From contig CM120640.1 in NCBI GenBank assembly GCA_051362555.1, positions 5,022,001-5,086,000 of the forward strand: 64,000 nucleotides of DNA, read 5' to 3'. The notes beneath the pieces were generated by a model, which made no database searches, was not told where the DNA came from, and saw nothing but the letters and a program-made list of their open reading frames with translations. Both the position numbers and the translations under genes were made by a program. How positions within the stretch are numbered: the first letter of the stretch is position 1; each line of letters begins with the position of its first letter. This DNA is from Lingula anatina (Eukaryota > Animalia > Brachiopoda). Shown here one piece after another: positions 9,378 to 54,479 of this stretch.

Positions 9378-9412
9378 CACGTCACACCACGTGCTTACGG
9401 TGACTTTATAAG
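9378..9412 (+). promoter_or_regulatory. Putative proximal promoter of the secreted repeat-peptide gene (CRE-like CACGTCA, E-box CACGTG, TATA-like TTATAAG)
   Basis: Motifs cluster about 90-120 bp upstream of the ATG at 9499. Confidence 0.45.
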
Positions 9413-9498
9413 AGCCGCTAGCCTGCCGTATCTGTCTCTCTTACTTGGTAAACTAGGCAGTCAAAGACCAATCTCTCTTAGAAAGAACCACAGTCGAC

Positions 9499-11403: not shown

Positions 11404-11793
11404 CAATGAAGACCAAAGGGATCACTAACAAGAGTCAAATTTTACATTACATTAAAAAGTGATGTATTGAGATTTATATAATTTTTGTAATAAAAAGCGA
11501 AAGTTTACATGACACTTTTGTTTTATGATAATCTTTTCAATATATTTATTAAAACCAAACATTAACAAATGTTGCATTTGTGGTCATATAAAATTACTTC
11601 TCAATGAAATGTGAAGGAAAACAGTAAACACAATCCAATCGCACTGGATAATATACGTACAGTACATGTAAATGTGCCAATAATGTAACTCCAGTGTGTC
11701 CATATAATAAGCATGACGTTCAATAATGTAAAAAGGGAATAGTATGCTAGCCGGTATAAATGAAAACCACCAAGTAAAAACAAGGCGCAAAAA

Positions 11794-14700
11794 TCACCAT
11801 AAAAGACAACAATACTTCTTAAATTGTTTTCCCATATCCTCTTCCAGATTTGGAGGTGGTTTCTGAGAACGTGTAAAGTTTAAGAAAAGTTGCTGTAAAT
11901 TAGATTTATATATCACAAAACTTTCAATGCAAAACCTGCCCCTCAATCGTTCCATGATGCAGAATAGTTTGGCAACAGGAATAGAAGTGTCCGTGACCAC
12001 GTAGTATAAAACATCCTGGTAAGCGTTCTTTAATACAGCTCCTGGTATTGAAGCTTCCAAACTGGCCATGAGCGGCTGCACTTCGGGTTTGCCTCCCTTG
12101 CTTGGGTATCGGATTCGTACGAGAATTGTGTACGTGTTGCAGAATTTGTTGCGCAGGTGCTCTATGCTGCCTAAACATGCCAGTCTTCCGTTGATCATGA
12201 TCGCCATTTTGGTACACAGGGCCTCGCATTCTTCAATGCTGTTGGAAAAAGCAATCCAATCAGAGTATTCTATACTTACTTCACTCTCATAATCAAACGT
12301 TAAACATAAAAAATGGAGCTACATTTCGCCCATAAAATAAGGCTTTCAGGTTCCTATTTTCTAACAAAATTTAAATGAAATGAAACAAGGAAACATCTTT
12401 TACAATCAAATATCGATTTGGTCAGCTGAACACGATATTTCAATTACCTATTGGAGAATATTACGATAGTCCTCCCGCGGGCATGGATCTCTTGTAGAAT
12501 AGCCCACACTCTTTGACGGCTATCTGCGTCCATTCCCGAGAGAGGATCGTCCAAAAACACCACTTCCGAATCCCCCATCAGAGATATGGCGACGCTCAGC
12601 TTTCGTTTGGCGCATAAACTGAAATACGTTTTTATATGTGTGTACTTGTATGGTGGATGGTTTTATGATACAATTCCCATGTGTGACACAATTTTAGCAA
12701 TACGTATTTAACTAAGCACTTGTAGCACACCCAGAGGTAAAGGGGCGATCAAAATAAGTTATCCGCGAGATTAAGTTGACATTATGGAGTACATCTTCTT
12801 CATATAGTACCTGTATTTGCATATCTTCTTATGTAGGCAATCCTCAATGTTCAGAGTTCTTCCCATGGCGCCGATCACTTTGGTAATGTGCTCTTTGTCA
12901 ATGCCCCAAAGCTGGCCTAATAGCTTCAACACCTCGCCGCCTGTTAGATGACCAGGGACAACGTCGTTTTGGGGACAGTACCCGATGCGCTGTGGTACCT
13001 ATTTTGATCATTTGGAAATTATATTCAAAAAAATTATTAAAAAATATAAAAGGCCATAGCACATAACTTTTATATAAAGCGACCATGATAACTGAAACTT
13101 TTGGGAATGATTATAAAAACATGTTGAAGTTTAAGTCCAGCAAATTTTCTTGAAATTTGATGGACATTTATAGGATTTAATAAAATTTTCATTTTTTTTT
13201 TTTTTTTGGGGGGGGGGGGGGGGGCACCCTGAATAAAAGACGCTAGCATGACTGGCATAGCGTACAGTCTTTACAGAGATAAACTGAACATGCTTACTTT
13301 GCCAATAGACCGTCGTAGATTGCGTCCTCTCAGATACACGTCTCCGGCTGAGGGTCGTAATGCACCCGTCATCAGTTTCAGGAGAGTGGACTTCCCTGCC
13401 CCGTGCGCGCCAATAAGTCCAAATATTTCACCTATTAACGAATTCCTGTAGATTAATATACGAAATGGCACTTGTTAGAATGAATCAAATGCTAACAAAC
13501 AATTTAATTTTTTTATCTCGTCAGCTGCGTGTTTAACAGAGTCCTAGCGCGTTACAGTACCTGGATATTCTCAAACTCAGAAACCTTTACGGGATACTGA
13601 ACGTGGCTATAGTTCCATAATTTAATCTACTGGCATCATCTTACCTTTGGGCACGCTAAGACTCACGTGGTCTATGGACACAAACTCATTGTGCTCCTTA
13701 CAGACCCTGTGTAGTGACACCGCCTGCATTTGGCGCAACTGATACTCTGGGGTTTCCGTCAGCCGTTGCTCCTCCAACGTGACATCATTATCCTCCGGCA
13801 CGGAAACTTTCAAGTCCTGTTCACGAAAGAGCATAGGGTATATGTTTTTATCTGAGGAAGAGAGTAGTCCTCTATAGAAGCGATACAGCATGCCGCTCTC
13901 CGAAAGAGCCAGCAGGACGAAGTAGAACGCAGCCTGTATGAGGAGGAAGACGAGGATCCGTCCGATCCCTAGTGCATATATACTCACGGGGTTGCTCTGG
14001 TAGGCTTTGCAGGCATCGTCACAGAAACCTGTAGTAACAAAGTGATCGTGATGTCAGTATGCAAATGAAAAACGGGCTATAAGCATAATTTCGGCTACCG
14101 GTTATGTATTGGAACGATGTACATGTAGGCCTACATACATAATTGCCGCAATTCAGGAATTGCTGATAAAACAAACTTTGGCATTCACAACGCAAACTCT
14201 TTAAGTTTCCCCAATAACAAATATACAATGAATGTGATCATGAAAAAAGATATAAATCAAAAAGTCCTAAAATGAATCCGTTTTGAATCACTGTGTAGCT
14301 GTATAATATGTACTAAATTCCATACTGAAATGTTAGAAAGACTCAAGTAAAAGCTGTCTACAAACCGTGACAGCATACAAAATCAGCCATATGTAAAACG
14401 TCTTGGCAATCTAGTTTGATGTTGTAGTTGACATAAAGTTCCAGAAGCCCCTCTCCTAGGCAGTACTGTGGAAACAGGGCCAGGAAGAGCCAATCCAAGA
14501 CCTCGCCGATCAGTCTTTGGTCAACGGACTCCGATGTTCGCAAAAATATGACAGTTGTTAAAGAGCCAATTCCTGAAAGGAAACCAATCTGAATAATTTT
14601 AATTATTAAAACAAATAGTATCCACACGCTAAACGTTAGGATAAATAGATATATCCCAACTGAAAAGAGATTAAAAGGTCAGTATACAAAATCAGACCCG

Positions 14701-17700
14701 TCGCTAGCTGCGCCCTTAAATGTGACGTTTTAAATGAAAAGTATTGGTCATCAAATTCACATTACATAGCCATAGACTAACCTACGATGAGATTGAGGAA
14801 GACCAGCGTTGCCACTACCCTGACTGATGTCTCCACGGACAGTGACAGGCAGTACATCAACGGAATTACAGCAAGGCCGTGAAAGAGCATCAGTAGCAAT
14901 AACCCGATGAGCTGGTAGTCGGCAAAATATGCATCAACTTGGAAGGCAAGGATTGTCAAAACCATCAGAAAGCAAAGTCCCATATAGATGATCAGATCCC
15001 ACAAAAAGTTTCCTAGCCAAAATGTCAAAGGTCGGGCGCCATTAATGAACTGAAGATGCTTAAAACCGGAGATGTTTTCTTGCTCGACCGGACTTGTGAG
15101 AACGCCCAAGAATATAGCCATACCGGAGACTATGATCACTGCAACAGTGTAAGCAATTTCGAGTTGTTCTTGATATTTTTGCTCAACAGATAGAGGCAGG
15201 GGGTGATTGATCACCTCGATAGAATGGTTTTCGGGTGACATCGTTCTTAGTAACGCATTTGTCAGAAAGTTAATGGAAATTGGTCTGCTGTGGTACGCTT
15301 CGCCCCCGTAATAAGCCGTTACCAGTTCCACTTTTTCCATTTCTTTCGAGTAAGAGGTAGTGTTACCAACAAGACCAAATGCTGCACCTGCTATATAATG
15401 TCTGTTGTAGTCTGGGATGCCAACTTGCTCGACTTCTTGCAAAATGGCGGAGTCAATGTCAAGGTCAGTGTAATCTAACATGAAACTACTAAAGTTCACT
15501 AAGCTCATGCCGCGTTCTTGGATCTCTCTTGAGTACACATGACCAAAAGTGTCTATACCAGTGGTAGCGTTGGGAGCAACAACGGCCACAACCTTGGCGT
15601 GCTTGCTCATGGTCTCCATGCCAACGTTTAACGGTTCGTAGTTGTGGATGTCCCTGTTGACAACATGTACGGAGAGTGCGATGGCAAGGACCAATAACGG
15701 TACCAGAATATGACAAATTGTGAACACAGGGTTTCGTTGTGAATATAAAAACCTCTTCATAAAGAGACTTTCCACTTGCTGAACGAAGAGTGCAGTTCCA
15801 CTTTCACGTATGCTTCCTTCTGGAAGCACCAACGCTTAAAAGGTGAAAAAGTATGTCTTGAAGACAAGTTGCATAGATTTATAAGTACATCGACTCTAGT
15901 CAAATCTATGAAAAATCCAAAAATTATGAAGGATAGAAAATGAAAATATAAAACAACGCCAGCATAAGACGATTGCTATATACACACTCCTACTACTAGT
16001 ATGTATTCTTATTTGGCGTATTCGTATTTATGCAGTAGACCCACTTTATCGTTATACCATTAATTCCCCACGTTTAAACAGTACAATACAGTATGTCATG
16101 TACAATGCATTCAATACAATAACAATGCTGCCTTAAAACTAAGCTTTCATAATATCTTACTCAAGGGCTGTTTCCCAAGATCCTGAAGAGGAATGGCTTC
16201 TTTTTCGTGTCCTTCAAGAATAACGTGTTCTGAGTCATTCTGTTCCGATGGTTTCAGGGATGACGTGGACAGATAGGACGAGTAGGACGGGTCAGACTTG
16301 AAGAGATCAGGACCACCTTCGGCAAGCCTGGGAATAGTTACGTGGGAAACAGGTAGAAAGAAAACTGACAATATATAGCCTCATATTTACGTCAACAGTT
16401 TGTAACTCTTCTCTTTTGCAACTTTACTGAGCGGTTGAAATTGTTGATGAGTAATATAATAACAATACCGGACGTAAAAAAAACAAAGTAACAACTGACA
16501 ACACCGTGAGTATTTACTCATCAGTTGAGAATATTAATGTAATCAAGACAACTTTAAGACCAATGGAAAACAGGTCATAACTTCACCATCGTACGATCAT
16601 AATTCGAGATGGAAGACCTTTACCTCTCATACACTTCTTCCATTGTGTTCATCCCTACATCATATGTGCCAACTCCTAAGGAAGGTTTGTGGTCATCAAG
16701 GTCTTGAAACAATGCTTCAAATTTACCATTATCTTTCGGTATAAGAAACGTTGCCCGCGTCGGTGACTCACACTTAAGATGCGAATTAGGAACATGTGAT
16801 TTGATTAGCGACGACGTATCTTCTATACGACACTGGATGTCTTTGCTGACCTGTATTTGGTAACCGATTCCTGGAAAATTAAATTCAACTTAAGAGACCT
16901 CTGAGTAAGGAACAAAATATGTCATGATTTGGAACACGTTAAAGAATACAAGTATAAGCTACATGTATGAATACAATTGCATACTATTTCCTAATTCGAT
17001 TTATAGTGCAACAGGTTCTACGTCCTGGAGGGAACAATATTTTCCTCCAAACCAGGCAAGTTTTAATGGCATGAAAGGGATTTAGTACAGACATCAAACT
17101 AACCGTAGCAATTGTTAATAAAGTCTGCACTTCCGCAACAACGGACTCGCCCACCCATCATGAAGGCGATTCTGTCCCCCAGGGCCTCCGCCTCCTCAAT
17201 ATCATCAGTGGCAATGATGATGGTGCGGCCGTGCTTGGCGCTTCTGAGGACGTCCCAGGCCTTTCTTCTTTCGCACGGATCCAGACCCGTGGTGAAGTGG
17301 TCCAATATTAAAAACTGCAATCATGATTTTCAGGTAATTGATGGAAAATAAATGTACAGTAGCACTGGCATTAGAAGTGAAATTATCAAAGTACAGTCCC
17401 AAACATCATAAATTTGATACAATCGTTTCCAATTGCCACATCACGGTAAAGAGAACCGTGTTTTAAAATCGCAAAGGTACTCTGTGCGAATTCTATGTAG
17501 AAAGCTTCATGTTTTATGCATAAATTCGTTTTAAGAATCTCGCGGGCCCTATAGCCTACAATTACATTATTTGCTAATTAAAACCCTTATCGGCTTCTGG
17601 CGCTTGTATCAAATCTCTAGCGAGTCTCGTGTATATCATCAGCTGCCAGCACTGCATCATACCTTGCTATCACCAAGAAGAGCAACAGCCATGCATAATC

Positions 17701-17963
17701 TCCTTTTCAGAGAATCGGGGAGTTTGCTGGCCTTGGTATTGCGTTCTGGTGCCAAATTGAGCAAAATCATCCATCTCTCTGCCTCGGCAACTATCTGTTT
17801 CTTTGGTAATCCTTTTAACTGAACGAAAAAAATGTATGTCTGATTTTAAAGAAAAGTTCGTAATGATACCAGAGACCAGCGACTGAACTTGATGTTAAAG
17901 ACTAAGCTCTTTTCATTGGACATAATTTCAAGTAATCAAGAGCATACTATTTACTGGAGGTAT

Positions 17964-17997
<34 letters not shown>

Positions 17998-20900
17998 CCT
18001 TGGTAAACAATTTCATGTGTTCCCATACTGTCATATCGTCAAACAACACGTTCTTTTGTGGACAGAAGCCAAGCTTTGGACGTATGGCGTTCATGTTCTT
18101 TGTGACGTCATATTTCTCGAAAATAGCACTGCCAGAACTTGGCTGCATTCTTCCTGCAACGGGGATAAAATAAGTGGATTAATTTCATACTTATATTTCA
18201 TTAACGCCCGAACTTGTAATATTAGGTTGATAAATAATTCAACATGGACCTGTGTTCTTGCAGTGACGTATACAATTGCTTTGTTGTTTGATAAACTGTG
18301 GAACTGCATATCTTGCAACATTCAGCTATGCCTATGAAGAGTTTGCATAATACTTCTTACGCTGATTTTAAATACATGTAATTTCACATGTCAATAAAAC
18401 ATTTACGCCTGTATTGACTACTGCAGAATTCATAGTATAACAGTACCAGTTAAGAATGTTAAGATTCACTTGTTGGCAGTATTAATCTTGGCAGTCCTGT
18501 CGGCAAAAGATCATACTCACCAGTGATTATAGAAAGAAGTATCGATTTCCCTGCCTTGGCTTTGCCATACAGTACAAAGATTTCGTTAGCGTATATTGTA
18601 ATATTCACTCCGGAAAGGGCCGCCTTCTTCCCAAAATTCTAAAATATTAAATATAAAAACCAGTCAGGGATGAAAAAAATTTCATTTAAAAATTTGATGT
18701 GTACAATATAGATACAGCTTGAAATTTTTTTCTTCAAACCCCAATTAAAGTGAAATAAAACTATTTACATAAATCAGTTGTGGAAAATGCTTAGTATGAT
18801 TCTTTTGTCTTTTGTCGTAAAGATACATGTAGGGGTACAATGTCTAACTGTGTTTTTTTTTGTTGTTGTTACAGTAAATTACTCCGTAACTTAGTAAATT
18901 CAGTACAACTCATCTTTCTTTAAAAGCAAGGTATTTTGACTCATCTACCTTGGTGAGCTTTTTTATGACTATTTCTGGAACTTGTTCCTCAGCCACATCT
19001 TCAAAGAATTGCGACTCTTTCTCCGTGATCATATAGTCTGTTGCTCTTGCACTGTCTTTGCCACTTGGGTCACTTCGCCAATATGTAACCTGGATTGACA
19101 TAGAGCATAATCATAATCATAATCATTTCAACTCACCACGCTGAAGTTATGACAATACCCTGAGGTATCCAAAAGGATCATTTTAAACAACCGCGACTCT
19201 ATTGGATTATGCGTAATGGGAATAAAAATTTATGCAAGATGACATATTTCAGCGGAAAATCGACCCCAGCCTGGAGACCTGCCTTGGAAATTGCCCAGAA
19301 ATTAGCTTAGGTCGTCAATAAGGTTTTTCCAAGAAAAATACTGCATACATAATTCCATATATTAACTAATTAAGGCCATGGCCCTGCCATAAATCATTGT
19401 TTGACACGTCACAAAATATTGGGTCTACGTACCGTAAATGGGAAATACCAAGGGTGAGCCCTGCCGTAGGGGCCTGGTGTGACCTCACCCAGGTACCACG
19501 TGACCACTATTAAGATCAAACTATCCACCAGGAACATCAGCATCACGTGCAGGAGGGTGAAATTGTCATCTTCTACCGCCGGCTTGTAGAAATTCGTCCA
19601 GTCCGCACCCTCGCCTAAAATTATCTCCTGATTAAAGCCAGTTATATCTTTCTTCTTTCCATCTATACTTTGTATTTGATCTTAATTTTGTCTACTTCTT
19701 TGTTTTCGTACTAATGCATTTTATTACTATGATAAGTTTTGTATTTTTGTCTTTCATTTTCTATTTGAAAACTATACAATAATTTGAAAACAATAAATGA
19801 ATATATTCCTTTGCATAATATGAACTTTACACTTTACAAGCAAATGTGGCAATAAAACTTCATTTAAATACATATACATGGGTCATGACCATGGGCACGC
19901 CCTGAGCCATATGGGGTCAACAAACTCAAAGTGTCACAAGTGTCCTTAGTTCTTACCAGCTGCTTCGTGCAATCCAATTATTTTGGTTCCAAAGGCAAGA
20001 GCAATATTAGGTAGCAAGCATGCAGCGAACTTCTCAGTTGTCGTCATGGTGTCATAACTGCGAGCATGCTCAATATAGATGTACGGGACATAGGTCAGCA
20101 GGAAGACAATGCTTGTGATGATGGCGGCCACATCGGCTGAAAATACCATTATAAAATCAATACACAAATTTTTATAATTCATATTCTATAATCTTAAAAT
20201 GGGACCCGATGTGCAGAACTCTCCTAATTTCATCAGTCACACAGGATTTGATAATCATCCTTTCTACGCATATAGGCTACTAGCAGGTGCAAAAGTAATA
20301 AAAGTAAGGAGCATTACGATATCAATAAGAATTCAATTAGGTCGAAACGTTCTCAAACGAGTTCACATCCCACAATAACAAGTTTTATTCTGAAAATGAT
20401 AAGAGACCTTAGTCTAAATGCACTTTTCACAAAGTGCCAATTGGCATTATTTGATAAAACTATTGCGCTTAATACAGTTCCCAAACACATTAAGCGCTTG
20501 TGACACTCTTGACAATGACTGCGTACTAAGAGCGTTCTGAAAGATAGGTAAGGCATTATTCAAAACACGTTCCTTCCACATCGCGCAACTCAATTATTAT
20601 ATGAGCGCACAAATAAGCACGCATGTAAAGCATGTCATTAAAAAGTCCATTACCTTTCTGAAAAAAAGCACTGGCGGCAAAACAAAACCAGGTGGTTGCT
20701 ATGCCATACAGTACCAACAGCAGGTAAGTTAAGATACCGGAGGTTTTGGTCAGAATACTAACATCCCCTGCGTCCAGCTTGAAGAGAGCAGTCAATATAC
20801 CCATTATGATGGCGTAATAGACGAAATCCTTGATGAACCAGGAGAGCCACTGGAGGGTAGAGCTGACACCCACCATGTTTAGGCAATCCTACAAAGGAGA

Positions 20901-23024
20901 ATGATCTGAGTAAATATCCCCATTGCAAATAAAGTCAGTGTATGGAATAATGTGGAACTCAAGTCCATGCACGAGGTAGGCAAACTGCCTTTGGCATATA
21001 AAATCATAGATCAGACCTAAAATGGAGGATAATTTAAAGAAAATATATCGATTGAAAGTAAAGCCCATATTCACGTATAATAAGATTACATAACAAATGC
21101 GAGGTATTCATACTGCCTTCATACTTTGTACATATATATATATAAACTTCAGTTAATAATTAATGTAACAAACAGCCAACTGAATATATTGCAATTAAAA
21201 TTGTAGAAAATATCTAGATTGATAAATTTTTTTCTTTCAAAATCCTGTAACTAATCGTATTTCTAAAAAATATGAATGCTTTTTTTTTTTGCTACAAAGG
21301 CCTGAGATTTAGCTAAGGAATTATTCAATCGATCTGCCGTCATCCTGGGAGAGTGGCAATTAGAATCAAACACACGCCAATGAATTCCAGAGCGAATGTG
21401 CAATTAAGAGCAGGTCAATTAAGTCATATTTATCTAATTAAACTGACCTGGAGAGATTGCAATATCCGACCTATATGATATAAGTCTTAGATCAAAGAAT
21501 ACAGTCTAGCAATTAATATCTCTGTCTAAATAGTCTTTTCCTTTGGGATTGATCGCATGATATTTCTGGCACGTCTCTTCTACAAGTAACTTAGTAATTT
21601 TCTCTACATTTTTCGATATGAACCATTTGTATTATAATTGCTGATTATTTTAATTATCCTTACCTTCAGCAATTTCTCTTTTTCGTATACCACTGCTCTG
21701 GTGATGTGAAACGTGTTGAATAATAAACTGAAGACGATGAACAGCGCTAATCGAGATTCGATCATGTTGACAAAGACGTCATGGGAATAGAAAGCATGGG
21801 GCATGCGTTTTAGGGTTGTTGTCAGGTTGGTTAAAAACGCAGTAGCGTTCTTTTGCACTGCTTCTATGATACTTATGTCCAGCGCATACTGCAGGGTAAT
21901 GAAACCAGTTTGCCAGTAGTCTGAAATAAGGTTTTGGTTATTAAAAAGAGAAAAAATGAAAAATGTATTCGACTGCATTGCAAATCTATTGTATAACATT
22001 TAGCAGGAACACAGTATTCGTAGTAAGGCTGAAGCAATAGAAGTGTATATTAAGGGTGTGGTGTGAAATGTAAGGACATCATTAAAATACTCACCTGGAG
22101 GCGAGTCTGAGGCTCTCGGTCTCAAAGTATTGACAAATGGAAAACGCTCAGTCGTCTTCCACGGTTTGTCTGCCGTCGACTTTAAACGGATCTTGTAACT
22201 TATTACTTCTGGGAACAATTTGCTTTGGTTCGACTTCCCTTCTTTTGTCAGCATGAGAAATGCAATTCCGCCGAGAATACTGCAGTTTGTGCGGTTCTGT
22301 TTTGTTACAAAGTCTAGCATTTCATCCTCAGAATTGAAAGGAATAGCTGTAAAATCATTAATTCCAATTTTTAACTTGTGAATATTACGGATCCTCTAGT
22401 TATTGTAATCTATAGCAGACTATGAGCGATGATCAGAATCTTTTGAAGATTTGCCTAAGTAATGCATTTTGTGTCGCTAATGAATTATTTGACCAAAAAA
22501 ATGACAATCAATCTTATTTCTATTATTCATAATATCGACAATGATATTTGATAACGAAAAAATGTGACTGAATTAGCTTTATATTACCTATGTTTAAAGA
22601 AACAGTGTGGCTGAGCATATTTTCAGTTGTCGCTTTTGTGAAGGCCTATGAAACTCAAGCATGTATGAAACGCGTCTGTTTGTGACTTCTCACCTGTGAT
22701 ATTTAAAGCGTGTTCAAATTTCCGAGTCACTTTGTTCATTATGTCTTCTGTTTTTCGCGTGTATGGCGTATAAGCAATAATCAATGTTTCATGCGTCTCC
22801 GAGCCGGGAAATGCATAATCCGACAGAATTGTTCCATTGTAGGTCGTGCTCTCCTTCTTTTCTATGGCAATCCCCATCCGAAGAAATAATAAAACAGCCG
22901 CAAAGAACACAGGGAAGACGATTTCAAACAGCGTCACCCAGGGTTTGCGCTTCTGAAGCAACCATATTTTCTTGAGCAGGAGCACTACCTGCGCTGGTTT
23001 TGATACACCCGTGGTTCCCTTCAT
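11794..23024 (-). CDS. Full-length ABCA-subfamily transporter (ABCA3-like), divergent paralogue with degenerate ATPase motifs; about 20 exons
   Basis: N-terminus QVVLLLKKIWLLQKRKPWVTLFEIVFP; EKEKLLK motif; NBD1 exons 18521-18638, 17663-17818, 17104-17314; large TMD2 exon about 14781-15834; NBD2 exons 13298-13431, 12811-12998, 12448-12618; terminal exon [25 protein letters not shown]. Exon structure mirrors the 40981-55131 gene. Confidence 0.93.
17964..17996. repeat. (GA)n microsatellite immediately after an ABCA splice donor
   Basis: Direct dinucleotide run. Confidence 0.9.
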
Positions 23025-40980: not shown

Positions 40981-43900
40981 TCAGAAACAACAGCAGCCTC
41001 GCTTCTTCTCATGGGGCTGCCTCTGCCTACGTGCAAAATTCAGAAACACCTGCTCCAACGTTGTCTGGCTGATGGAATAATCCTCAATGCCATACACAGG
41101 TTTAGCTTTTTCCATTGTACCGAACAGATAAGCCCAGGAAAGGGAGGTGTCGGGGAGATTATACTGGACGTAACCCTGGTGGACGTCCTCCAACTCACAC
41201 GTAGGAAACGTGCTCTGGACGAATTCCATGAAAGGGTTTACATTGACAGGCCCTCCACTAGGGGGTGCTTGGATCTTAGCCAGCAAGGTGAACCCCTGGC
41301 CAAATCTGTTCTTGAGGTGCTGGACACTGCCCAGGCACATGAACTGCCCATTGACCATGATGGCCAGACGTGTGCACAGGGCCTCGCATTCCTCCATGCT
41401 GTAATAAACAGATAGACAACTGTGGATGAGACTTGCCTCTCATAAGTCTGTTATCAATTGCAGTCAAAATTCATCATATTTAATTTCATAGGGTTGGGTA
41501 AAACATGGTTAAAAATGGGACAAGTGAATCGTAAATTTTAAGATGTAAACACCCTGTGAACATGACTGTAATTGTTTTTAACTGACAATACTATTGTTAA
41601 CTTTCATTCAGAATTTTCAAAGTTTAACATGATTATAAGTGCCTGTGGCTGTGACCAGACTGACCTGTGTGATGTGAGTACCAAGGTGGTACCACTCACT
41701 CTCACTTTCATCAGTGTATCCCACAGTTTCCTCCTGGCTGCTGGGTCCAGGCCAGTGGATGGTTCATCCAGGAACACCACAGGAGGGTCACCAATCAGAG
41801 CCAGGGCCGTGCTCAGCTTTCTTTTGTTACCACCACTTAAACACAAACATAAAACTTGATTTAAAATCACAGGCAAGTAAATATCTACATACACACACAC
41901 ACTATAAATCTACTGTAAATGAAACCTGTAAATGAAAAAAAGTGCAAAATATATTACAAGTACAGTACTGAGAAATGATGAAAAAATATGTGAGAACTGT
42001 GCAGAAATATTTTAAGCCTGCAGCGCCCGGACACGGAAATAAAAGAGTGGAACTACACATACGAGCCTGATGTCCACACCAGTGATACATCTGTTCTCTT
42101 GGATCAAGAGGAGGTTGCTGACACCAAAGACAAGAACAAGGTGACATTTGTGAAGATTCAGTATTGAGGAAAGAGCCAATATCAAAGACACAAGCACTGT
42201 GACAGATGCTGAGGGCATTGTAGAAAGAGGTAAGACAGTTGATATCAAAGACACAAACACTGTGACAGATGCTGAGGGCATTGTCAAAAGAGGGAAGACA
42301 GTCAATAACAAAGACACAAACTATGACAGAGGGCATGGAGGAGAGAGTTTCCAAGGTCCACCGCCCATCATGCTGGAAAAGTGTTTAACCTGTTGACATC
42401 TTACTTCAGGTGCAGGTCAAGCACATAATTGGATCCTCACTGCAGATCTAGCCTATCGATACTTAATCCGCTCTACAGTAGGTGTACAATTCAATGGATC
42501 CCTTTCACCAGAAAGATACCAGTACAGATAAAATTGAAGAATTTCAAAGACAGGTAGCACATTTCATAACTGGTAATTATGCTGATAGAAAACAGGGTTG
42601 TGCCTCCAAAATGTTAAAAGACCTAGGCCTAACCCCTTTATGTGACAGGTCAGATGTAAAGAACACAGATCTATATTCTTCTACAAAATGATTGAAGGTC
42701 TCATGCCATCAATGTGTCACCAGAAATACCTGACCAAAATCCATGGTAGTAAACATAGAGTCAAAGTCAAGGACTTTTCTGCATATGACTCAGACAATCT
42801 GGCTGACAACTATGCAAAAATAATGGCAGTTGTTTCCATTCACTACAAGACAAGACAGAAATTTACAGGAACTTCTTTAGACTGAAGCCACCTAGGGGAC
42901 AGGGTAGTTTGTTCATAGTGTATCGACTCTTTTAGAGCAGCAATACTAAGACTAAACACCCTTCACAATTACGCCTTGCTAGCCCTGTGATGTAAATCAA
43001 TTTGGATTTTTTTTTAACCTCAGACTAGTACTGAAAAGTATACAGTGCTCTAATAATTCGATCATGCTCCTGTATAAAACATGACCAACTTATCTCAATT
43101 TGATTCAATAGATTTAATTTAGGTTTTATGCCAGCTTGATATGTAGACCTGAAAATGAAGAAGCTGACCTGAAGCTCAGGGTAGTCAACTATGTAGTTCT
43201 ACATGACTGAGCCTAGTAAAATTCTACAGAGGCAATCAAGTACCTGTAAGTTCCACACTGCTTGTCTGCATGCTCCTCTATGAGCAGAGCTTTGAGGATG
43301 TCATCAACCACCCTGGATATTTCTGTCGAGGAAATACCACGGAGCCTAGCAAAGAATACCAGCAGCTCTCTGGCTGTCATCTGCTCAATCAGGGCATCAA
43401 ACTGGGGACAATAGCCTATCATCTGTCTCACCTTAAATAAAAAGCAACAAAAATATTTTCTTCTCTAGAATAGAGAAAACATTCAACTAAATGAGCAATA
43501 CAAAAATAAACATAATGAAGCAGGCATTTATAATGATGTCACTTTCTTAGAAAAAGAGTAATTTTGAACCATGCCATTTTCCATGAATTCATGATGGTGC
43601 TAGCCTTATGTATAACTACTACAATGGGACAATGATGCTAACATGGCCCTCTGATATGAAGAACAGGCTGAATCTGTGACCAGTGTTATTTGGTATACAA
43701 CCTGATCCTTGTCTCAGTCAATGCCATGTGGGAGAAGGGAGGCATAGTTCAAACATCAGAAATCACTCTTACCTTATCAGCCTGTTCCCTTATTCCATAA
43801 TGTCCTATGAGTGCATTGCCAGAGGAAGGGAGAAGGTCCCCAGTCAACATCTTGAAGGTTGTAGTCTTCCCTGCTCCATTCACACCCAGAAGACCAAATA

Positions 43901-46900
43901 GTTCACCTGATAAAATTATAAAATGTTGCAACAGTATTTCAGAATCTGTGTTTAAACTATTTGGTTGATGTATGCAAGGAGCAAAGAGCTGCTTGACAAA
44001 TTTAGTTCTACTTTAGTGACATTAATACGAAGTTGCCTGATGTCCAAGATAAAGGAAACAAGGCCATTCTGTCAAGGGGAATAACTGTCAGATCTTGTTG
44101 TGGTTATACTATAACATGCAATGGGTAAGGTGTTTTCACTAAGTCTAGATGTAAATATAATTACCTGTTACCATGCTACATCCTTTGATATAAATGAGCA
44201 AAAAACTGCTATTTTGCTGAATTCAGAATCTGTTTTTGTTTCTTAAATTAAAACTTCTGCTTTAAAACATTACTATGATATTTGCAATGGGAATTATTGC
44301 TATTGTCAAAGAAGAAGCAGTAAAATATCCACACACCTTTCGGTATACCTAAACTGAGATGGTCAACAGCTAGCATATTCTTATAATATTTGGTCAACTT
44401 CTTCAGCACCAGAACATCATTCTCACAGGCTATTTCTTGCTGAACTCTCCCCTGTTCTGTTAAAACATCCTGATCTACAGCCTCCCCAGACTGGACGAGG
44501 TCCCCATTGGCCACCCGGGCTGACTGCCTTCTGTATACAGTGTTACTGATGATCTCAGACTCCAGCAGGGCCAGGATGAGGAAGTAGAATACCCACTGTA
44601 CCACCAGGAATATCACCATACGTCCGATTCCAGGGGCAGGCCATGCAAGGTAGTTCTCTTCATACTTCAAACAATTGTCTCCACAGTTATCTAGAAAAAT
44701 ATAATACGTAATCAGAATAGCTGTACCTCCCCTGGGATACTTTTTGATGAAAACATTTCTTTAGTAGTTGTGGATGATCCCCAAATAGGCCATTGCTTGG
44801 GTCATATGATCACCAGGGACGTGAGATCCTTTCAGGATCCAACAGACCCATAAAGGCAGATCTTGCTTTATATCAAAGATATCAGTCTACAGATCCAACC
44901 TTTACTTTTATCAAAAACACCAAATACCTTAATATCCTCAATTTAGCACAATGAAGTAATAAATACACTGAAGATAAATAAGAGAGCTCATCATAAACAT
45001 TACATATATGTACAGATGCATGTGGTGTCTTATTATTAGTTGCTAAGAGTGCAATTCAATAATCATTACATTAATTTAATTTATGCCACTTATTTCATAA
45101 TACCTCACTCTCAGAAATTTTAGAACACTTGGTGCCTAAATTACCTTTGCAACAGGGATTACCAATTCCAAGGTCACACAAGTCCTGTACCTTGGTGTCT
45201 GTGCACAGTTTGATGTTCTGGTAATTATTATACATGTCCTGCAGGCCCTTGCCCAGGTTGTAGTTTGGAGCCAGGACAATGAATATCCAATCCAGGACAA
45301 CAGCTATAGGCCTGGTGTTTGTGTTGGTATCTGGGTCATGGAGGGCGTCCAGGAGGTACACTGTCAGCGTGGCAGTTAGACCTGAGATAAGTTTGAGGTA
45401 AAAAGAATATGATAATGGCTACTTCATAACCCGTACAAATAAATGCCAAAACCTAGGCTCTATTCCCATAGATTTTAGATCGATCTATCCTCGCGGGGAG
45501 TCTCACTAGATTACTTTCAGATAATCCGACTTAAATGTCCGTCCCGCCTACTACAAGCTGTAAGGTGGTAATTAACTTTCGTGTCCGCCCTGCTGACAGC
45601 TATTTAGCGTGAACCCCCAGGGAGTTAGGTCGATCTAAAGTAGGTCGATCTAATCTATGGAAATGGGGTGCTAGAGACACTGCAAGAACACATTAGGACA
45701 TCAAAGGAATATTAATTCACAGATTCAAAAAATTATTAAGAACAGCATAGAAGACAGTTTAAAGTTTTGTCTATCAACAAACATTTGTTCACTTATGCTA
45801 AAGAAAAATCAATATGAAATCATATTAAAATTCAAAATACATTATAAACATCAATGCATAAAAACCAACAAAATGTCAATACCTAAAAGAATGTTGGTAA
45901 AGGTCAACAGAGTTGAAGCAGTCACTGGCGTCTTGAAGAAGAATGACAATAAATACATTAATGGTAGCATGCCAAATGGAAACAGTAGCAACAAGAGAGC
46001 AACAAAGCCCAGACGTCCACCCTGTGAGTATGCCTCTGGTTGGAATGCAGCAAATACTATGATAATCAGTGCAAACACAATTGCGTAATTGATGAGATCC
46101 CAAATGAAGGTGGACAACCAAAATGTCACAAGGCGTCCTCCGCTGACTATCTGCAGGTGCTTGGCATTGTTGTCCCTCTCCCTGACGAGGAACACCACAA
46201 AACTGCTGGCCAGGTAGGACATCCCAAACAGTATGCACAGCTGGATCAAGAAGCCAAACAACATGCTGGAGTTGCTCTGCAACTCTCTCTTGAAATCGGA
46301 GGGAAAGGGCAATGGGTGGTTAGTGACTTCAATGCTGAAGGACTCATTGACAAAATATCTCAATAGGGTATTGGTGACCAGGTTTACAGCTATAGGAGAG
46401 TTATGTAGAGGCTGTCCATTGCTATGAGCTATGATTTCCTTCACTGCTGATGAGGTATTGGTATCAAAGGAGGCTGCTGCAATGAAATACTTGTTGTAGT
46501 TTGCAATACCAAGTCTATCAGCTTCTTGAAGTAGGTAACTTTCCACATCACCAGAACCATTAGCAGAGGCAGCATTGACATCCTGAACTTGTGTATTGCT
46601 TGGCATTTTCAGACCATATTTCTGGCTTATGTTGCTCAGCACCACGTCCCCTGGCTGGTACCCTGCGGCAATATAATTGGGATCACTGCCAAACATCTCA
46701 GTATTCATCTTGAGGGCTGGGTAGTCACTCTGTGTGCTGGCGGGGATCAGGTCCAGCGCCAGTGCCAGCATGGTGAAAATGGCTGGCACCAGTAACTGCG
46801 CCAGTGTCACCACTCTGTTGCGCCAGGTGTGCAGAGCTCTCTTCACGAGCATGGCATACAGCTGCTGGAGGTGGAGTTTTAGGCCAGAGTTTTTCTTCAA

Positions 46901-49900
46901 GTCAACATTAAATGCTGGAAAAAATTATACCACAAAAAATGTCTCTATACATGTAGGTAAAGGTATAAGCAAATGTTGGTGATTTAATTTACATGCTTGG
47001 GTAATTAAAAATTCATTATTTTTTTCTCTGCAATAACATTTTGTTGGTATTGTTCAAAATATAAATCTATACTATATAAAAATTTCAGTTAATAGCAAAT
47101 TTAAACTGACAACAAATGCTAACAATTTATATTTTAATCTACTTGTTCACATTGTACCTGGTCCTTTGGTCACTCCCCCGACTTCCTGTAGAGGGATATC
47201 ACCATTGCTCTTCACCATGATAACACCACTGGTGCCGTCCTGTTCTTCCTCCAGACTGGCATATCCAACAGCTGGTTTGCGCACACTCAGTTTTCTTGAG
47301 GGGCTCTTGACTAGTTCTTCATTCACATCAATACCTTCGCCAACTCTGTACAAAGTATTAATAGGAAATAGAAGCATGATGAATATCTTTTTATTGGAGT
47401 TTTACTCAAGTGATCTGGTTACATGTTTGTGTAGAATACCAAATATTTCCAAGACTACATAATTAATTTACAGTAATCCCCATCAATGTTTAATAACAAA
47501 ATGACACAAAAGACATAAAAACCTGGTCCCCTATTTGTACCTTACTCCCAGGCTCAGTTTACAAAGATACTTTGAAGCCCTTACTTGAGAAACACCTCCT
47601 CCATGGTTGTGAGAGACACACCAAAGCTGGACACCCCCAAGTCTTTGTGCCTCACCTCCAGGTCAGCAAACAAGCCTTCAAAACGACATATTTCTTCCCT
47701 GGGCAGGACATAAGACAGCTCAGCACCTATGTCAGTCTCCAAGGTGGAGGAAGGCACATGGCCCTGGATCATCTGGGTCACTGCATCTATATTACATGCC
47801 TGTTCTTTCACTAATACCATGTGAAAACCAGCCCCTGTTAAAGTACAAGTGAACACTGATAGTATTTGCATTGTGCTCTACTTCACAAATGACACATCTT
47901 ACAAAAGGAACTATAGTCTTGAAAAGCACAAATAAAAACAAACTGTATGTACTCAAGCTATCTAAAACTGATAAAATTCAGTCAAATGTTTTCTTATGTG
48001 CCTTTACTAAACATCAATCAACTCTGGTTGTGACAAGCAATGTACATAAACACAATATCTGTTCTTTGAAGAAGAGAGGTTCATAAATATTTCCTGTAAA
48101 AAGCTTTACCAGTAAATAAAAAAGCTTCATGTTGTGGTATTTTGCCAGAGATTGAAAGAGGGTGGCTGGTAAGTTAATTACCCTGCTTTGTTCATCACTA
48201 TGCAGAAGAAACACTGGTCTCATTGTATACGTAAATAAGTCAATCTTAAATATCACCCTCACCATATTTATTCTTGAGAAAGAGTGAGCTCCCACAGCAC
48301 CTCAACTCCCCCTCAGCCATGATGGCAATCCTGTCTCCCAGCAGGTCTGCCTCCTCCATATAGTGTGTGGTCAGAACTATGGTTCTGCCTTGCCTTGCCC
48401 CCTGGATGATGTCCCAGGTCTGGCGACGGGCACTGGGGTCCATACCAGAGGTGGGCTCATCAAGCATTACAATCTGAAAATTTATTAAATTCAGGGTTTT
48501 CTTTTTTCATTCAAGTTTTATGTGTTTTCTGAAATTCTTATAATATATGTTTCAAATTCAACTTGACCCTTCATTTTTGCACAAAAAAAATCCCACTAAG
48601 CTTAGATACAATACTCATTTTGATATAGAATTTATCTGTAATAATAGGAAATGTGCACAGCCTCTACTCTGACTTCCATTTCTGTGACATGGCTAGACAC
48701 AGGTGTTTGCTATAAAATCAATCACTGTTGTGTACTTAATAACCGGATGTAATCAAGAGAAATAAGTAACTTAAACTTGGAGAAAAAGGTAGAACGTCAT
48801 CATTAATCGATTATTCAGTCTAAGGAAAGTCATTTTGGAAACTTCAACATAAAGCTGTTGCTACTCATACATGCATATAAATAACCTTGAAAGAGCACAA
48901 ACAAAAAGATTAACTCAAGTAGATAAAAATCAATAACAGGAAATATCACGGTATATAACAATATTTCCGTAGGTGGATATACAGCAAAACAAATTTGTCT
49001 CTTGCCATTTTCAATCTTGAATTCATGGCAATAAGCAAGTTACCATGGTATTGTCTCTCCACGTGTTGTTACTAATGAACACTCATGATTCAGCTTCTTA
49101 ACAAGGCCCCACAGAGATAAATTACCTTGGAATCTCCAATTAGAGCTATGCCAACAGACAGCTTGCGCTTCATCCCTCCAGACAGGCCTGAGGGGAAAGA
49201 TTTCCTTTTGTCTAGCATTCCCATGATGCCAAGTGTCTTGTCAACCTCCATTTTAACAGCAGACCCAGTCACACCTTTCATCTTCAAAAGACCAATATTC
49301 AAGAAAAATTTATGGAATGCAGCACAGCTCCTTTTTTCTTTCTTTTTTTCTTTCTTTCTTTCGACAAATGTTATTTTGGGGATGGGTAGGTGCTAAAAAA
49401 AGAACACATTTGGCAGGAAGGGTTGTTCCTGCTCTCATATTAACTCTAAGAAAGAAAAATTCAAAATCAATAAACAACTTAAAAAGGTTAATAATATGCC
49501 ATTTCTAATGGCTATTTTATATGAAGCAAATTTGTCCTCATCAACAAATCTGACATTCAAATAACATCTTACTGTACCTGCACATAAAATTCCAAGTGTT
49601 CTTCTACTGTCAGAGCCTCAAACAAGACATCATGTTGAGGGCATAATCCAAGGCTCTCCCGAGCTTTTGCAATGCTTTTTCTTATGTCATAACCATTGAC
49701 GACTGCTGTGCCCTTGCTTGGGGGGATGAAACCTGAAATCATCATAAATTGGACATTCATAAATGCTGCATTAAAATGTAATGGTAATAAAGCTTAGATA
49801 AAAGCACAATAGATCATTCAAAATGCCATCCCTTTATTGAAAAATTCTCTTACCAGTCAGCATGGACATGGTAGTTGTTTTCCCTGCACCATTGTGCCCC

Positions 49901-52900
49901 AGCAAAGCAAACACCTGGTTCTCATACATAGTCACAGACATCCCAGCCACTGCTACTTTCTTTCCTTTAAACGTCTGGAAATACAAGGAAAAAGGAAAGT
50001 GCACATATTCTTATAAAATAACATGGATCTTTGATTAGTAACTTAAGGGAGCAGCCGCAATGCAGGAAAATTGTGTGCTATTCACATGCTTAATAATACA
50101 TAAAAAAGGGAATTTTAATGAAGTGCAGATTTCAAAGCATGGGAAAAATAAATGTTTGGTACAATATGAGTATTATGAGAGTGTGTCTTACACCCCATTT
50201 CCATAGATTAGATCGACCTACTTTAGATCGACCTAACTCCCTGGGGGTTCACGCTAAATAGCTGTCAGCCGGGCGGACACGAAAGTTAATTACCCCCTTA
50301 CAGCTTGTAGTAGGCGGGACGGACATTTAAGTCGGATTATCTGAAAGTAATCTAGTGAGACTCCCCGCGGGGATAGATCGATCTAAAATCTATGGGAATA
50401 GAGCCTAAGTCATACCTTTCTTAGACCCTTGACCTCAATGCCAGCATTAAACCCTACAGGATCAGCTTCAAAGAACTCTTGTTCCTGACCAACTCCTTGT
50501 GTGTGGTGTTCCTCATCATGATCATCGCTCACCTTCTCCCCGCACCAATAGCTTCTCTGCAAACAGAACAACCAAATACGTAAAAAGCATATATATTTTG
50601 TTGTCTTTTTTTTTTTCTTCTTGAACTCAAACGTGTGTGCATCAAAAATTCAACTTCAAGATCGTTTACAGATTTCTTTCCAGTCAAATTAGACAATTAC
50701 AATGACTCAAAAAACCTCTGGATAAGACCTGTGGGAAAAGGACTGCATTAGCTATATATAGAAGAAAACTGTCAATGGCTTACAGTGCAGCAGAAATACC
50801 ATGGCTGTGGCACTCCATACTTCCCAGGTCTGACTGCCTCCACATACCAGGTAAGTAGAAAACCAAGCACGGCATCAAAGAGTAACATAAACATGGCATC
50901 CGCCAGGGAAAAGTCATCATCTACCACAGCAGGCTTGTTAAAGTTGGACCACTGCACTCCCTCACCTGGACAACAAGAAAAGGAGGTTGGGATGAAGTAA
51001 AAACAGAAGTACAATATGCCTTGAATTGCTTCTGTTTGTTTCATTTTCATACCTTTCTCCCAAAGAGCAACTAAATGATTTAGCTAACATATAATGTTGG
51101 TTTACAACCAGGCAGCATACCATCTATGCAGTTTATAACATAATACAACCATTTTTTAAAGTTACTCTTATGAGTTGATATTTTGCAAGGAACTACCCGG
51201 CATTAAATACAGGGGAAATCCTATGTAGCTGTTACAACAGCTTTTCTTCAATGGACATCAACCATAAAAAATGTTTGAAACAATATGCCTGTACAGTATG
51301 TTACTAATCTATTCTATCGTGAGATTGATAAGATAACTCCCTTGTATTGCAATTATCAGACCTACAAGGATCATGTATCGCTTATTGGATTAGAAACCCA
51401 GTCACAAAATTCATTTGGTTGTCAAGGTGATTGAAGCATATAAGGCTTATCATGAAGGATTCACTCTAAAAATATCCTTATCCCTGTACTTTACTGATTA
51501 CTTGTACATATATAACTTAGATGATCAGAACCTTCTTATTAGGAACGCATTTTGCACTTATTTTAAAATAATCACCATTATTTCCCCTATGCTGTGTTTA
51601 TGTTATGAACAGCAGTGCCCCTTAAACAAAGATGGTTCTGGCCAACATACTAGTAGACCTGAGCTTGCATACCATTCATTATATTTGTTTTTACAGTATA
51701 TGTTGTCAAAGGGAAAAAAGTGGAGGAAATTTCATTTTAGCAGAGAATGCACTTTGGTAAAAATGTTTTGGCAACCTTTTATCATAATCTGTTGGTTATT
51801 GTATATAGCTCAACTTTTTTTCAAATGAATGTCATCAATAATTCATAATTTAATACCAACATGAAAGTAATATTGATTTTCTAATACTTTACCCTCAAAT
51901 ACAGCACAGGCAAACAGCATACTTTATCAACACATGCAATAACATGACTTCTTTTCACTTGACAACTTGAATAGCAATCATAAAGTACAGACCTCAGCCA
52001 AGGCAGCTCAATTAGTATCATCAATTAATTAACTAATGAGAAATGAATCACCACCAAAATCTAATTCATTCTGAGTTAACCATGAAAAACCACAAAAATA
52101 CTATAAAATCTGTGCAGAAAATTTTGAGTTAGGCACTAAACCAACAAATTAACAATACAAAGGGGAAAAAAAAGCCTAGGCAGAGGTGATAATGCTTTTC
52201 CTGCTGAGGTACACCGTTAGCTAGCATTACTGCAGCAGTAGCTATTCTGCGTGCACATATCCAGATATTTATGAAGGAGTTATATACATAGTCATTTACA
52301 ACCTGTAACATGCCTCATGTGTGTCTGTATCCAATACTGTATGCAAGCATTTAGTAATTTTACTGTATGAATAGGTCAACAAAGAGTATACAAAATTATT
52401 GAATCTGCAGGGTATTCATTTAGAGCTAGCTGTCATTGTAATATGTTTGCAAATTAAATGAATGATTGTATGTTGTCATCTGTTCGATAATCCAATTACT
52501 GGCTGCAAGCCCATAGGCGGGGGGGGGGGGGGGGGGGGGATTCGGTGGTGGTGGTGGTGGAGGGGGGGGGGGGGGGAGGGGATTTACCAACAAACTGCCT
52601 TTTTTGCCAGGAAAAGGTCCTCTCTGGGCAAAATTTGATCTATGTACACAAAAGTTTCATGGTAAAAAGTTCACTTTTTTCAGAAAAAGATCCCCCTCCC
52701 TTTGAAATCGTTGGCTACCGGCCAGGGATGTGGATTATATGTACAAAGTATGGTAATAAATGAAAAATTATTGCAATACAGCAATATACACACATTAACC
52801 CCATTAACACCCTACCTGTTGACATGTGTTGTCCTACAGCATAGGTGCCCAGAGAAAGAGCCAGGTTGGGAATCAGGCAAGCAATCACCTTGTGGAACCT

Positions 52901-54443
52901 TGTCATGTTCTCATACTGGTTGGATAGAAAAAACCATGGGACATAGGTCAGGAAATAGAGCAGTCCACACACACCAGCCCCCGCATTAGCTGTAATGAAA
53001 AAAAAATGTAGCATACTTATCATAATTTCTAGTATAAACCTTAATTCAACCTATGGAACACTGGCAGAGGGTAAAAAGAAAACGTGCAGAGCTGAGATAT
53101 AGCCTTGGCCTATGCCTTAAGACAGATTGGGAAATTTTCAACTGTAAGTAATACTTGTTTATATCTTTAGCAGCACAAAATTTTGCACATGGTTTTAAAA
53201 CTCACAAGGAATATTGATAACATTTTGAACTAAAAAAAAATGAAATAGCATAGAATAACAAAAAGTTTTTATTTTCATCAAATTGAACATTTTACTCACC
53301 ATTGTCAAAGAACACACAGCAGACAAAGCAAAAGGATATTGTGGCAACCCCATAGATCAGAAGGAAAATAAACATAACAGAAGCATCACTCTTTCCCAAG
53401 ACGCTGAATCCGCTATTCACTTTTAAACTGAACAGCACAGTCATTATTGCTACAGCCACCAAAATGTATATGAAGCATTTGAGAAACCATGTCATCCAGT
53501 AAAGCCAGTTACTTGTCCCCATCATACGCATATACTCCTGTGGAAAAAAAGAGTTAATACTTTTAATACATCTTGTAATCATAAATGCATAATGAGCATG
53601 CAAAGTTGAAACTCATCAACATTTTCAGGATTACTGTGCATGTTACCAATACAACCAATTTCTTTTGAAAAGAATGTCAAAATTCAGGAACAGGCATAGG
53701 GTTTGATCTCAGAGGTATCGGAGGTATATTATGTAGACTAACCTTCAATCGCTTCTCCTTCTCATATACTATTTGCTTTGGGATTTGCAAAGCAAACAGC
53801 AGGAAGCTGAGGATCATAAAAAGTGGCAGGTTACCAGTCACTATCAGCACGTATACATCCACAAAGTAGGAGGGATATGGAAACCGCTGGATATGAACTG
53901 CATAATCTGCAACATCTGCTGTTGGATCCAGCTCTAGAATGATGCTCATGTCTACTGCTTGTTGGATTTGAAGAAAACCCTTTCCTTTGTATGCTAAAAT
54001 ATATTTCGAAAATGTTTTATGAATAAAAACCTAACTTAAATCATTGTCAAAAAATAAATAAAATTGTAATTTTGTCATCTTTCTTTATATATGGTTTTAT
54101 AAAGCTTAATAATATCTCTGCAATGCATAAACCATAATATTTTTACATGTTATTCCCTTCAACTTACGGTCATTAGTTCCGTCACGAGGTCTTGAACCAA
54201 TATTAAATGTAAAAACTCGGTCTGTACGCCAATTTCTTCTTGTGTATGAGCCATCAGGTAAGAGGTCTGTTGAGTTGAGCCTAATTTTGTATTGAATAGC
54301 TTGTGGCAGGCTTGAATTTTCAACATTGGTGAACACAACTCCACCAAGAGCACGTATGGCACTCTGATTACTGTCCATGAAAAAGACCATATCCTCTTCT
54401 GAACTAAATGGCAAAACTGCAAAATAAATAAATAAAAGAACAA

Positions 54444-54479
<36 letters not shown>

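Follow-up and report, generated by a model that had tools for sequence, protein, structure and literature searches.

The brachiopod (lamp shell) Lingula anatina carries a full-length ABCA transporter gene in which both composite ATP sites are degenerate. The gene is complete, expressed and under strong purifying selection; it is not a pseudogene. A consensus composite site consists of a Walker B glutamate, an H-loop histidine and the opposite LSGG signature, and neither site of the encoded protein has one. With the fold kept, the catalytic residues lost, expression and purifying selection, the protein shows the features of a pseudo-ATPase. Judged from its residues, it would probably bind nucleotide without a hydrolysis cycle and would not carry out hydrolysis-driven pumping. 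ABC proteins with one degenerate site are already known; this case is a full-length animal ABCA protein with both sites degenerate, supported by expression and selection data and accompanied by a canonical sister gene.

Gene structure and the two ATP sites

The window, the whole stretch of 64,000 nucleotides analyzed here, contains the degenerate gene on its minus strand (Table 1). The gene model was built by joining exons at GT-AG sites: 20 coding exons yield a CDS of 5214 nt with 1737 codons and a single stop, and all 19 introns are of the GT-AG type. The RefSeq protein of Lingula anatina (P0001) has equal length and is 99.8% identical; its 3/1737 differences all occur as alleles in RNA run X15 and none falls in a motif, so that the motif residues of P0001 are identical to those of our model. 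Pfam detected ABC_tran, ABC2_membrane_3 and R1_ABCA1 twice each, and Pfam, hydropathy, the structural model and Foldseek together show the ABCA architecture: TMD-NBD-R twice, with a large extracellular domain after the first helix of each TMD. P0001 is named ABCA1 in RefSeq; among PDB entries human ABCA3 matches best (residues 11-1723, E 4e-268), and by alignment the protein is ABCA3-type, not ABCA1.

Table 1. Positions of the degenerate gene, its motifs and the canonical paralog in the window
Feature	Position	Strand	Remarks
Degenerate gene, whole	11794..23024	-	ABCA3-type full transporter, 1737 aa
Domain order of degenerate protein			TMD1/ECD1-NBD1-R1-TMD2/ECD2-NBD2-R2 (Pfam)
Exons 1-5	23024-22694, 22346-22095, 21920-21664, 20888-20654, 20136-19957	-	
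Exons 6-10	19614-19433, 19089-18949, 18638-18521, 18153-17999, 17818-17663	-	
Exons 11-15	17314-17104, 16870-16624, 16327-16161, 15834-14782, 14572-14366	-	
Exons 16-20	14028-13645, 13431-13298, 12998-12811, 12618-12448, 12238-11794	-	
Exons 1-6: TM1, ECD1, TM2-6	19433..23024	-	ABCA3 alignment
Exons 14-16: TM7, ECD2, TM8-12, cysteine-rich last extracellular loop	13645..15834	-	Pfam PF12698, E 5.6e-21 (exon 14)
Exon 20: NBD2 end, regulatory domain R2, stop codon	11794..12238	-	Pfam PF23321, E 2.8e-09
NBD1 Walker A GKAKAGKSI	18540..18566	-	Lys557/Ser558 kept; His-Asn-Gly to Lys-Ala-Lys
NBD1 signature LPDSL (consensus LSGGM)	17708..17722	-	faces site 2
NBD1 Walker B Asp674-His675 (LDHF)	17297..17302	-	catalytic Glu to His
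NBD1 H-loop Asp706 (ATDD)	17204..17206	-	His to Asp
NBD2 Walker A GAHGAGKST	13385..13411	-	Lys1439/Ser1440 kept; ABCA Asn to His1435
NBD2 signature YSLCA (consensus YSGGN)	12815-12811 + 12618-12609	-	faces site 1; split by intron 18
NBD2 Walker B LDDP	12543..12554	-	catalytic Glu to Asp1557
NBD2 H-loop FSNS	12458-12448 + 12238	-	His to Asn1589; split by intron 19
Tandem canonical ABCA3 paralog (neighbor)	40981..55131	-	20 exons, 1753 aa, every motif consensus

The initial annotation concerned positions 12448..13431, which are exons 17-19 of this gene, and described NBD2 as having an intact Walker A next to a degenerate signature, Walker B and H-loop. All four motif strings are present on the minus strand, in frame after intron removal. 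The Walker A is indeed intact with respect to the general GxxGxGK[ST] consensus; it does not hold the asparagine conserved in ABCA proteins (GxNGAGKT), which is replaced by His in NBD2 and by Ala in NBD1. The accompanying claims that NBD1 is degenerate as well, so that both composite sites are hit, and that the exons are free of stops and frameshifts were borne out: NBD1 carries GKAKAGKS, LPDSL, LDHF and ATDD in addition to the NBD2 changes, and the whole CDS is open.

Site 1 is composed of the NBD1 elements GKAKAGKS, Asp-His (His675) and Asp706 together with the NBD2 signature YSLCA; site 2 is composed of the NBD2 Walker A, Asp-Asp (Asp1557) and Asn1589 together with the NBD1 signature LPDSL. 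Both NBDs are devoid of the Walker B Glu, the H-loop His, the ABCA Walker A Asn and the signature glycines, and both keep the Walker A Lys and Ser, the Q-loop Gln, the Walker B Asp and the D-loop Asp. The fourth-position Gly is missing from both signatures, and both carry bulky residues. Furthermore, the NBD1 P-loop lacks Gly554, and the NBD2 A-loop position is His in the degenerate protein and Tyr in the canonical neighbor. Nucleotide-binding residues are kept at 10/10 positions (Thr-to-Ser counted as kept) versus 1/10 for residues of hydrolysis and closure (Walker A Asn, catalytic Glu, H-loop His, signature Ser and fourth-position Gly; one Ser remains), with a Fisher p of 1e-4 for groups picked post hoc when the sequence was already known. 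Junction reads were found for both introns that split a motif: 15 in X15 and 4 in X18 for intron 18, which builds the signature, and 22 in X15, 5 in X18 and 1 in X17 for intron 19, which builds the H-loop. Because RNA reads show both junctions, the odd signature and H-loop do not stem from exons wrongly joined in the initial annotation.

In order to place these losses we fetched 113 homologs longer than 1450 aa, of which 107 aligned over both NBDs (6 scored too low and were removed); the set was chosen by similarity and contains some redundancy, and motifs were read by pairwise mapping. Both Walker B glutamates are missing together in none of the 107 ABCA homologs. The first glutamate is lost in one (spider P0079) and the second in none; the H-loop histidine is lost in six homologs for the first NBD and in two for the second. 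At the 102 NBD columns conserved in at least 90% of the 107 homologs the degenerate protein loses 29 residues, spider P0079 loses 28, one tick homolog 19 and the median homolog 2. By this measure the motif degeneracy is far beyond chance. Conserved columns kept by the degenerate protein amount to 56/66 in the membrane and extracellular part, 120/187 in the NBDs and 12/21 in the R domains, compared with 62/66, 179/187 and 21/21 in the canonical neighbor; retention in membrane part versus NBDs differs with a Fisher p of 0.002 in the degenerate protein and 0.52 in the neighbor. By these counts relaxed constraint is concentrated in the motor, in the NBDs more than in the membrane part, and it extends to the R domains.

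For the C-terminal half, AlphaFold produced a model with a mean pLDDT of 87.3 and a pTM of 0.80 from a 52-row alignment, and Foldseek returned ABCA3 (7w01/7w02) as best matches. As the model leans on canonical homologs, it shows fold compatibility, not activity. In human ABCA3 the lipid cavities are lined by Lys21, Arg280 and Lys370, and K21, R280 and R1212, and K370, K924 and N372, are listed as residues of the TMD cavities (PMC8993109). Reading these positions from the 7w01 alignment with the chain numbering shifted by 21 residues (E690 = chain 711), we found K21, R280 and K370 kept as K27, R269 and K358 in the degenerate protein. The Asn372 position is Asp in the degenerate protein, and the Lys924 position is Val both there and in the neighbor, in the latter case as read by eye.

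Expression, selection and origin

The initial annotation had suggested that the protein may be retained for a role other than pumping, with expression and selection as tests and related genomes as the place to look for a doubly degenerate clade. Expression and selection both support retention: spliced transcript is present in 6/7 RNA runs examined, from 2/3 studies, and allele pN/pS is 0.05-0.08, well below 1. The clade in other species was not found by sequence searches. Reads mapped on positions 9300-23500 comprised 906 of 9.5 million records in X15, nearly all oriented as expected for minus-strand RNA, 161 of 11.1 million in X18 and 72 of 8.4 million in X17; X12 gave 3 of 12.4 million, none of them convincingly exonic. 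Some X17 reads fall on an intronic repeat. On positions 16600-19700 we counted 158 reads in X15, 103 in X16, 14 in X19 and 22 in X20. Among the read joints listed, at least 15/19 introns are supported.

For NBD1/R1 the complete list of allele differences (23 rows and another 2 changes next to a junction) holds 21 synonymous and 4 non-synonymous changes, corresponding to a pN/pS of 0.05-0.07. A pooled set, which adds 35 coding rows among 40 rows listed (5 non-coding rows were dropped; 127 further rows lie outside the set), holds 48 synonymous and 9 non-synonymous changes with a pN/pS of 0.055-0.077 (p < 1e-17), and the synonymous excess has p < 1e-8 under all three kappa values. Since this allele variation is within-species or from sibling populations, it reports present constraint on the gene. 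In the NBD1 motif codons the only variant listed is a synonymous change that keeps Asp at Asp706, with thin coverage in X19 and X20. The sole indel among the read variants listed falls in the 3′ UTR.

The canonical ABCA3 paralog lies 18 kb upstream of the degenerate gene on the same strand. The two proteins are 37% identical, and the genes share all 19 intron phases with aligned intron positions. Our trees place the degenerate protein inside the ABCA3 clade (support 100/100) on a branch of 1.9-2.3 changes per column. A 14-row mixture-model tree, from which long branches and their kin (P0051, P0053, P0079, P0004 and P0214) were left out, pairs it with the neighbor (85/83) and joins the pair with mollusc ABCA3 (100/99); the branch lengths are 2.28 for the degenerate protein and 0.57 for the neighbor, a 4x difference over the whole protein. 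With 19 rows the pairing is at only 53/34 and the position within the ABCA3 clade is unsettled; holding the degenerate protein with spider P0079 comes out 5.1 log units higher (p-AU 0.71). When only membrane and extracellular columns are used, the spider included, the neighbor pair is found at 88/85 with branches of 1.31 vs 0.72 (1.8x), and the spider grouping has a p-AU of 0.36.

FastTree grouped the degenerate protein with spider P0079 (0.95). We did not accept this grouping because FastTree joins long branches and because derived states are shared no more with the spider (19/69) than with snail (19/59) or tick (24/82); the mixture-model trees prefer the neighbor, though the spider grouping survives the AU tests. 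Taking trees and gene structure together, a lineage-specific tandem duplication appears the better reading than an old clade shared with arachnids.

The ortholog searches were run with three queries. Exon 14 gave 5 matches against longer proteins, with the next best at 25-29%, and a best match after self of 28-32% against 1.84 billion representatives. The NBD2-R2 query gave 131 matches with the best at 36-43%, and NBD1-R1 against shorter proteins gave 197 matches with the best at 39-43%. In none of these searches did a match come closer than ordinary ABCA3, and a search of the ESM Atlas returned generic ABC clusters only. As no ortholog turned up, conservation in other species lends no support to a role for the replaced residues.

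Possible roles of the degenerate protein

The role that we favor, tentatively and short of calling it probable, is that of a passive, nucleotide-modulated lipid facilitator derived from ABCA3, not a pump. The copy would have arisen when ABCA3 was duplicated within the brachiopods, with pumping left to the sister gene. Each RecA lobe of the degenerate copy would still bind ATP or ADP without splitting it at a useful rate. Because the signature glycines and the contact between Walker A Asn and D-loop are lost, the NBD dimer would be weak: instead of the ATP-closed lock of E/Q mutants, the protein would flicker between a lateral-open and a closed state, and its retained lipid cavity would let phospholipid go down its gradient, either from one leaflet to the other or onto an acceptor outside the cell. 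A precedent is TAP, in which a mutant with a weakened NBD dimer acts as a passive facilitator gated by nucleotide (PMC4242082). In ABCA3 the TMDs close when ATP binds, and hydrolysis only resets the transporter (PMC8993109). In ABCA4, the Walker A asparagines touch the gamma-phosphate and the opposite D-loop, and a double Lys mutant shows no substrate release on ATP (PMC11405800). ATP binding by the Lingula protein may itself be weak, given the loss of Gly554 in NBD1 and the Tyr-to-His change in the NBD2 A-loop. The relaxed R domains, the Asp at the Asn372 position and the Val at the Lys924 position likewise tell against a facilitator; the kept binding residues, the better conserved membrane part, the kept K21, R280 and K370 equivalents and the ABCA3 fold of the C-terminal half speak for it. 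The bolder proposal that this is a natural animal ABC transporter moving lipid without ATP hydrolysis at either site, a nucleotide-gated scramblase or lipid conduit that possibly belongs to an old protostome pseudo-ABCA3 lineage shared with arachnids, we regard as doubtful.

The bulky signatures LPDSL and YSLCA, both without the fourth-position Gly, may block NBD closure altogether, which would favor a static receptor or scaffold over a facilitator. CFTR G551D is the basis for judging what is tolerated at the fourth signature position. The protein might then serve as a lateral-open, lipid-bound membrane scaffold, as a lipid or ligand receptor via its extracellular domains, or, in a SUR-like manner, as a regulator of a partner such as a channel or the canonical ABCA3. 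Channel regulation by ABC proteins is known (ABCC8/9, PMC7756269), and the better conservation of membrane and extracellular parts fits such a non-transport role. However, a static scaffold would have less reason to keep the Walker A Lys/Ser, the Q-loop Gln and the Walker B Asp in both NBDs, and the low pN/pS inside NBD1/R1 also speaks against it, unless the need for a stable fold or a sensing of nucleotide accounts for this. On balance we consider a role outside transport unlikely.

Rather improbable, too, is a slow or rewired pump with low useful ATP hydrolysis, at site 2 via Asp1557 or at site 1 via a swapped dyad. The NBD1 changes from Glu to His675 and from His to Asp706 are reciprocal, and an acid-imidazole pair could persist. 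All binding residues are kept, Walker A Asn-to-Ala is among the milder changes in ABCA4 (PMC11405800), and Glu-to-Asp sites as well as double ABCB1 glutamate mutants keep slow or residual ATPase (PMC7756269). According to the latter source, however, Asp sites hydrolyze ATP too slowly for transport to be sustained. In ABCA4 the single glutamate mutants lose substrate-stimulated ATPase, and E1087D alone abolishes it as well (PMC11405800); since both glutamates are thus needed and Asp is no substitute, a hydrolysis-driven cycle would not be possible in the Lingula protein. Each site has in addition at least 4 independent losses (Asn, Glu, His and opposite signature), and constraint is relaxed broadly over NBDs and R domains, not at the dyad alone.

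A long branch and the failure of sequence searches to find an ortholog would suit a duplicated ABCA3 that is decaying and losing function, a reading made very improbable by a 5.2 kb frame still open and 19 introns still intact although identity to the sister has fallen to 37%, by spliced expression, by the pN/pS and by a lone listed indel in the 3′ UTR. An artifact of assembly or gene model is hardly credible, as P0001 carries identical motifs, RNA reads run across the motif exons and junctions, and 7 DNA runs contain at least half of the words sampled.

Significance and comparison with known systems

According to published descriptions, ABC transporters with a degenerate site still have one consensus site, and for ABCA proteins two seem to be required. 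A natural, expressed and selected ABCA3 with no consensus site suggests that the ABCA scaffold can serve a purpose independent of the normal hydrolysis cycle. The canonical sister gene alongside is a built-in control, and the gene pair opens a long-standing question to direct testing, namely whether lateral access and lipid extrusion in ABCA proteins require no more than bound ATP, or even no nucleotide at all. That the case is so far seen in one lineage limits its weight. The RefSeq name ABCA1 is a warning that automatic annotation hides pseudo-transporters. A search of the open literature brought up no naturally occurring ABC transporter in which both sites are degenerate, and no work on the ABCA genes of Lingula.

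The protein resembles human ABCA3 (7w01/7w02) and invertebrate ABCA3-like proteins in domain order and size. In contrast to ABCA3 with its two consensus sites, Glu, His, Walker A Asn and signature are replaced at both sites. ABC proteins with one degenerate site (ABCC proteins including CFTR, SUR and MRP1; TAP; ABCB11; some human ABCA; ABCG5/G8) show the same types of change, that is Glu to Asp, altered H-loop and altered signature, and likewise keep the binding residues (PMC7756269). According to that review, degeneracy in human proteins is confined to NBS1 and affects 21/29 full-length or heterodimeric proteins, whereas the Lingula protein departs from the pattern of one degenerate and one consensus site in that both sites are hit.

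Among the natural sequences compared, degenerate cases come from arachnids. P0079 of the spider Araneus ventricosus, similarly but less fully degenerate, has lost the Glu of NBD1, the His of both H-loops and the signature glycines of NBD2 but keeps the NBD2 Glu. The degenerate ABCA3-like tick proteins P0053 and P0087 keep both Glu; in P0087, a shorter protein outside our length cut, both H-loops and signatures are altered. Engineered counterparts are laboratory mutants with signatures kept that were captured closed on ATP: ABCA4 E1087Q/E2096Q (E/Q-E/Q) has two ATP bound and no ATPase (PMC11405800), and ABCA3 E690Q/E1540Q has strongly lowered ATPase (PMC8993109). Unlike these mutants and the TAP D-loop mutant, the Lingula protein is natural and under selection, with the D-loop Asp kept and the signatures lost.

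The canonical neighbour and other features around the degenerate gene

The likely source of the duplication behind the degenerate gene is its canonical ABCA3 neighbour, the frame of which is open and carries the consensus at all motifs. Two introns of this neighbour apparently hold copies of one element of ~200 bases with inverted ends, as judged by eye; the copies lie in opposite orientations to each other, and the element is probably a small transposon.

On its other side, the degenerate ABCA gene is arranged tail-to-tail with a small gene that ends ~400 bases from the ABCA stop. Each of the repeats of this small gene is made up of two exons, and Pfam matches were weak only (DUF1496, E 0.012; Fn1_2, E 0.058). 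Sense reads were absent over most of the gene in the RNA runs X15, X18, X17 and X12. For the single-exon ORF a Pfam search gave no match.

Features of the window (window positions)
Feature	Position	Strand	Description
Canonical ABCA3 paralogue (neighbour)	40981-55131	-	20 exons, 1753 aa
Neighbour intron, ~200-base copy	50200-50420		
Neighbour intron, ~200-base copy	45450-45660		
Neighbour intron, open stretches	42480-42900	+	putative retroelement remnant, judged by eye
Small gene	9500-11410	+	start resembling a signal peptide; three near-identical ~50-aa repeats with cysteine
Single-exon ORF	7154-7738	+	194 aa; N-terminal hydrophobic helix, Ser/Pro-rich tail
Open stretch	58476-59690	-	405 aa; FAM110 C-terminal domain (Pfam PF14160, E 7e-17)

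Two classes of RNA reads under one species label

By their divergence from the window, the RNA runs X18, X19 and X20 and the runs X15, X16 and X17 form two classes, with read identities of mostly 99% or more in one and mostly 95-99% in the other. Because reads of the same species label split in this way, the classes suggest distinct populations or sibling species. The degenerate gene is expressed in both.

Altered motifs in ABCA homologues of other animals

Among the homologues from our sequence searches, the rodent ABCA3-like paralogues P0010, P0011, P0012, P0023, P0016 and P0027 have altered NBD1 signatures, and in the squirrel proteins of this set the NBD1 H-loop His is replaced by Pro as well. 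H-loops and signatures are altered in the spider, tick and mosquito ABCA proteins P0079 (Araneus ventricosus), P0053 and P0087 (both tick) and P0060, and an NBD2 H-loop of the form ATQR is common to the spider and mosquito proteins. Arthropods may have degenerate ABCA lineages of their own.
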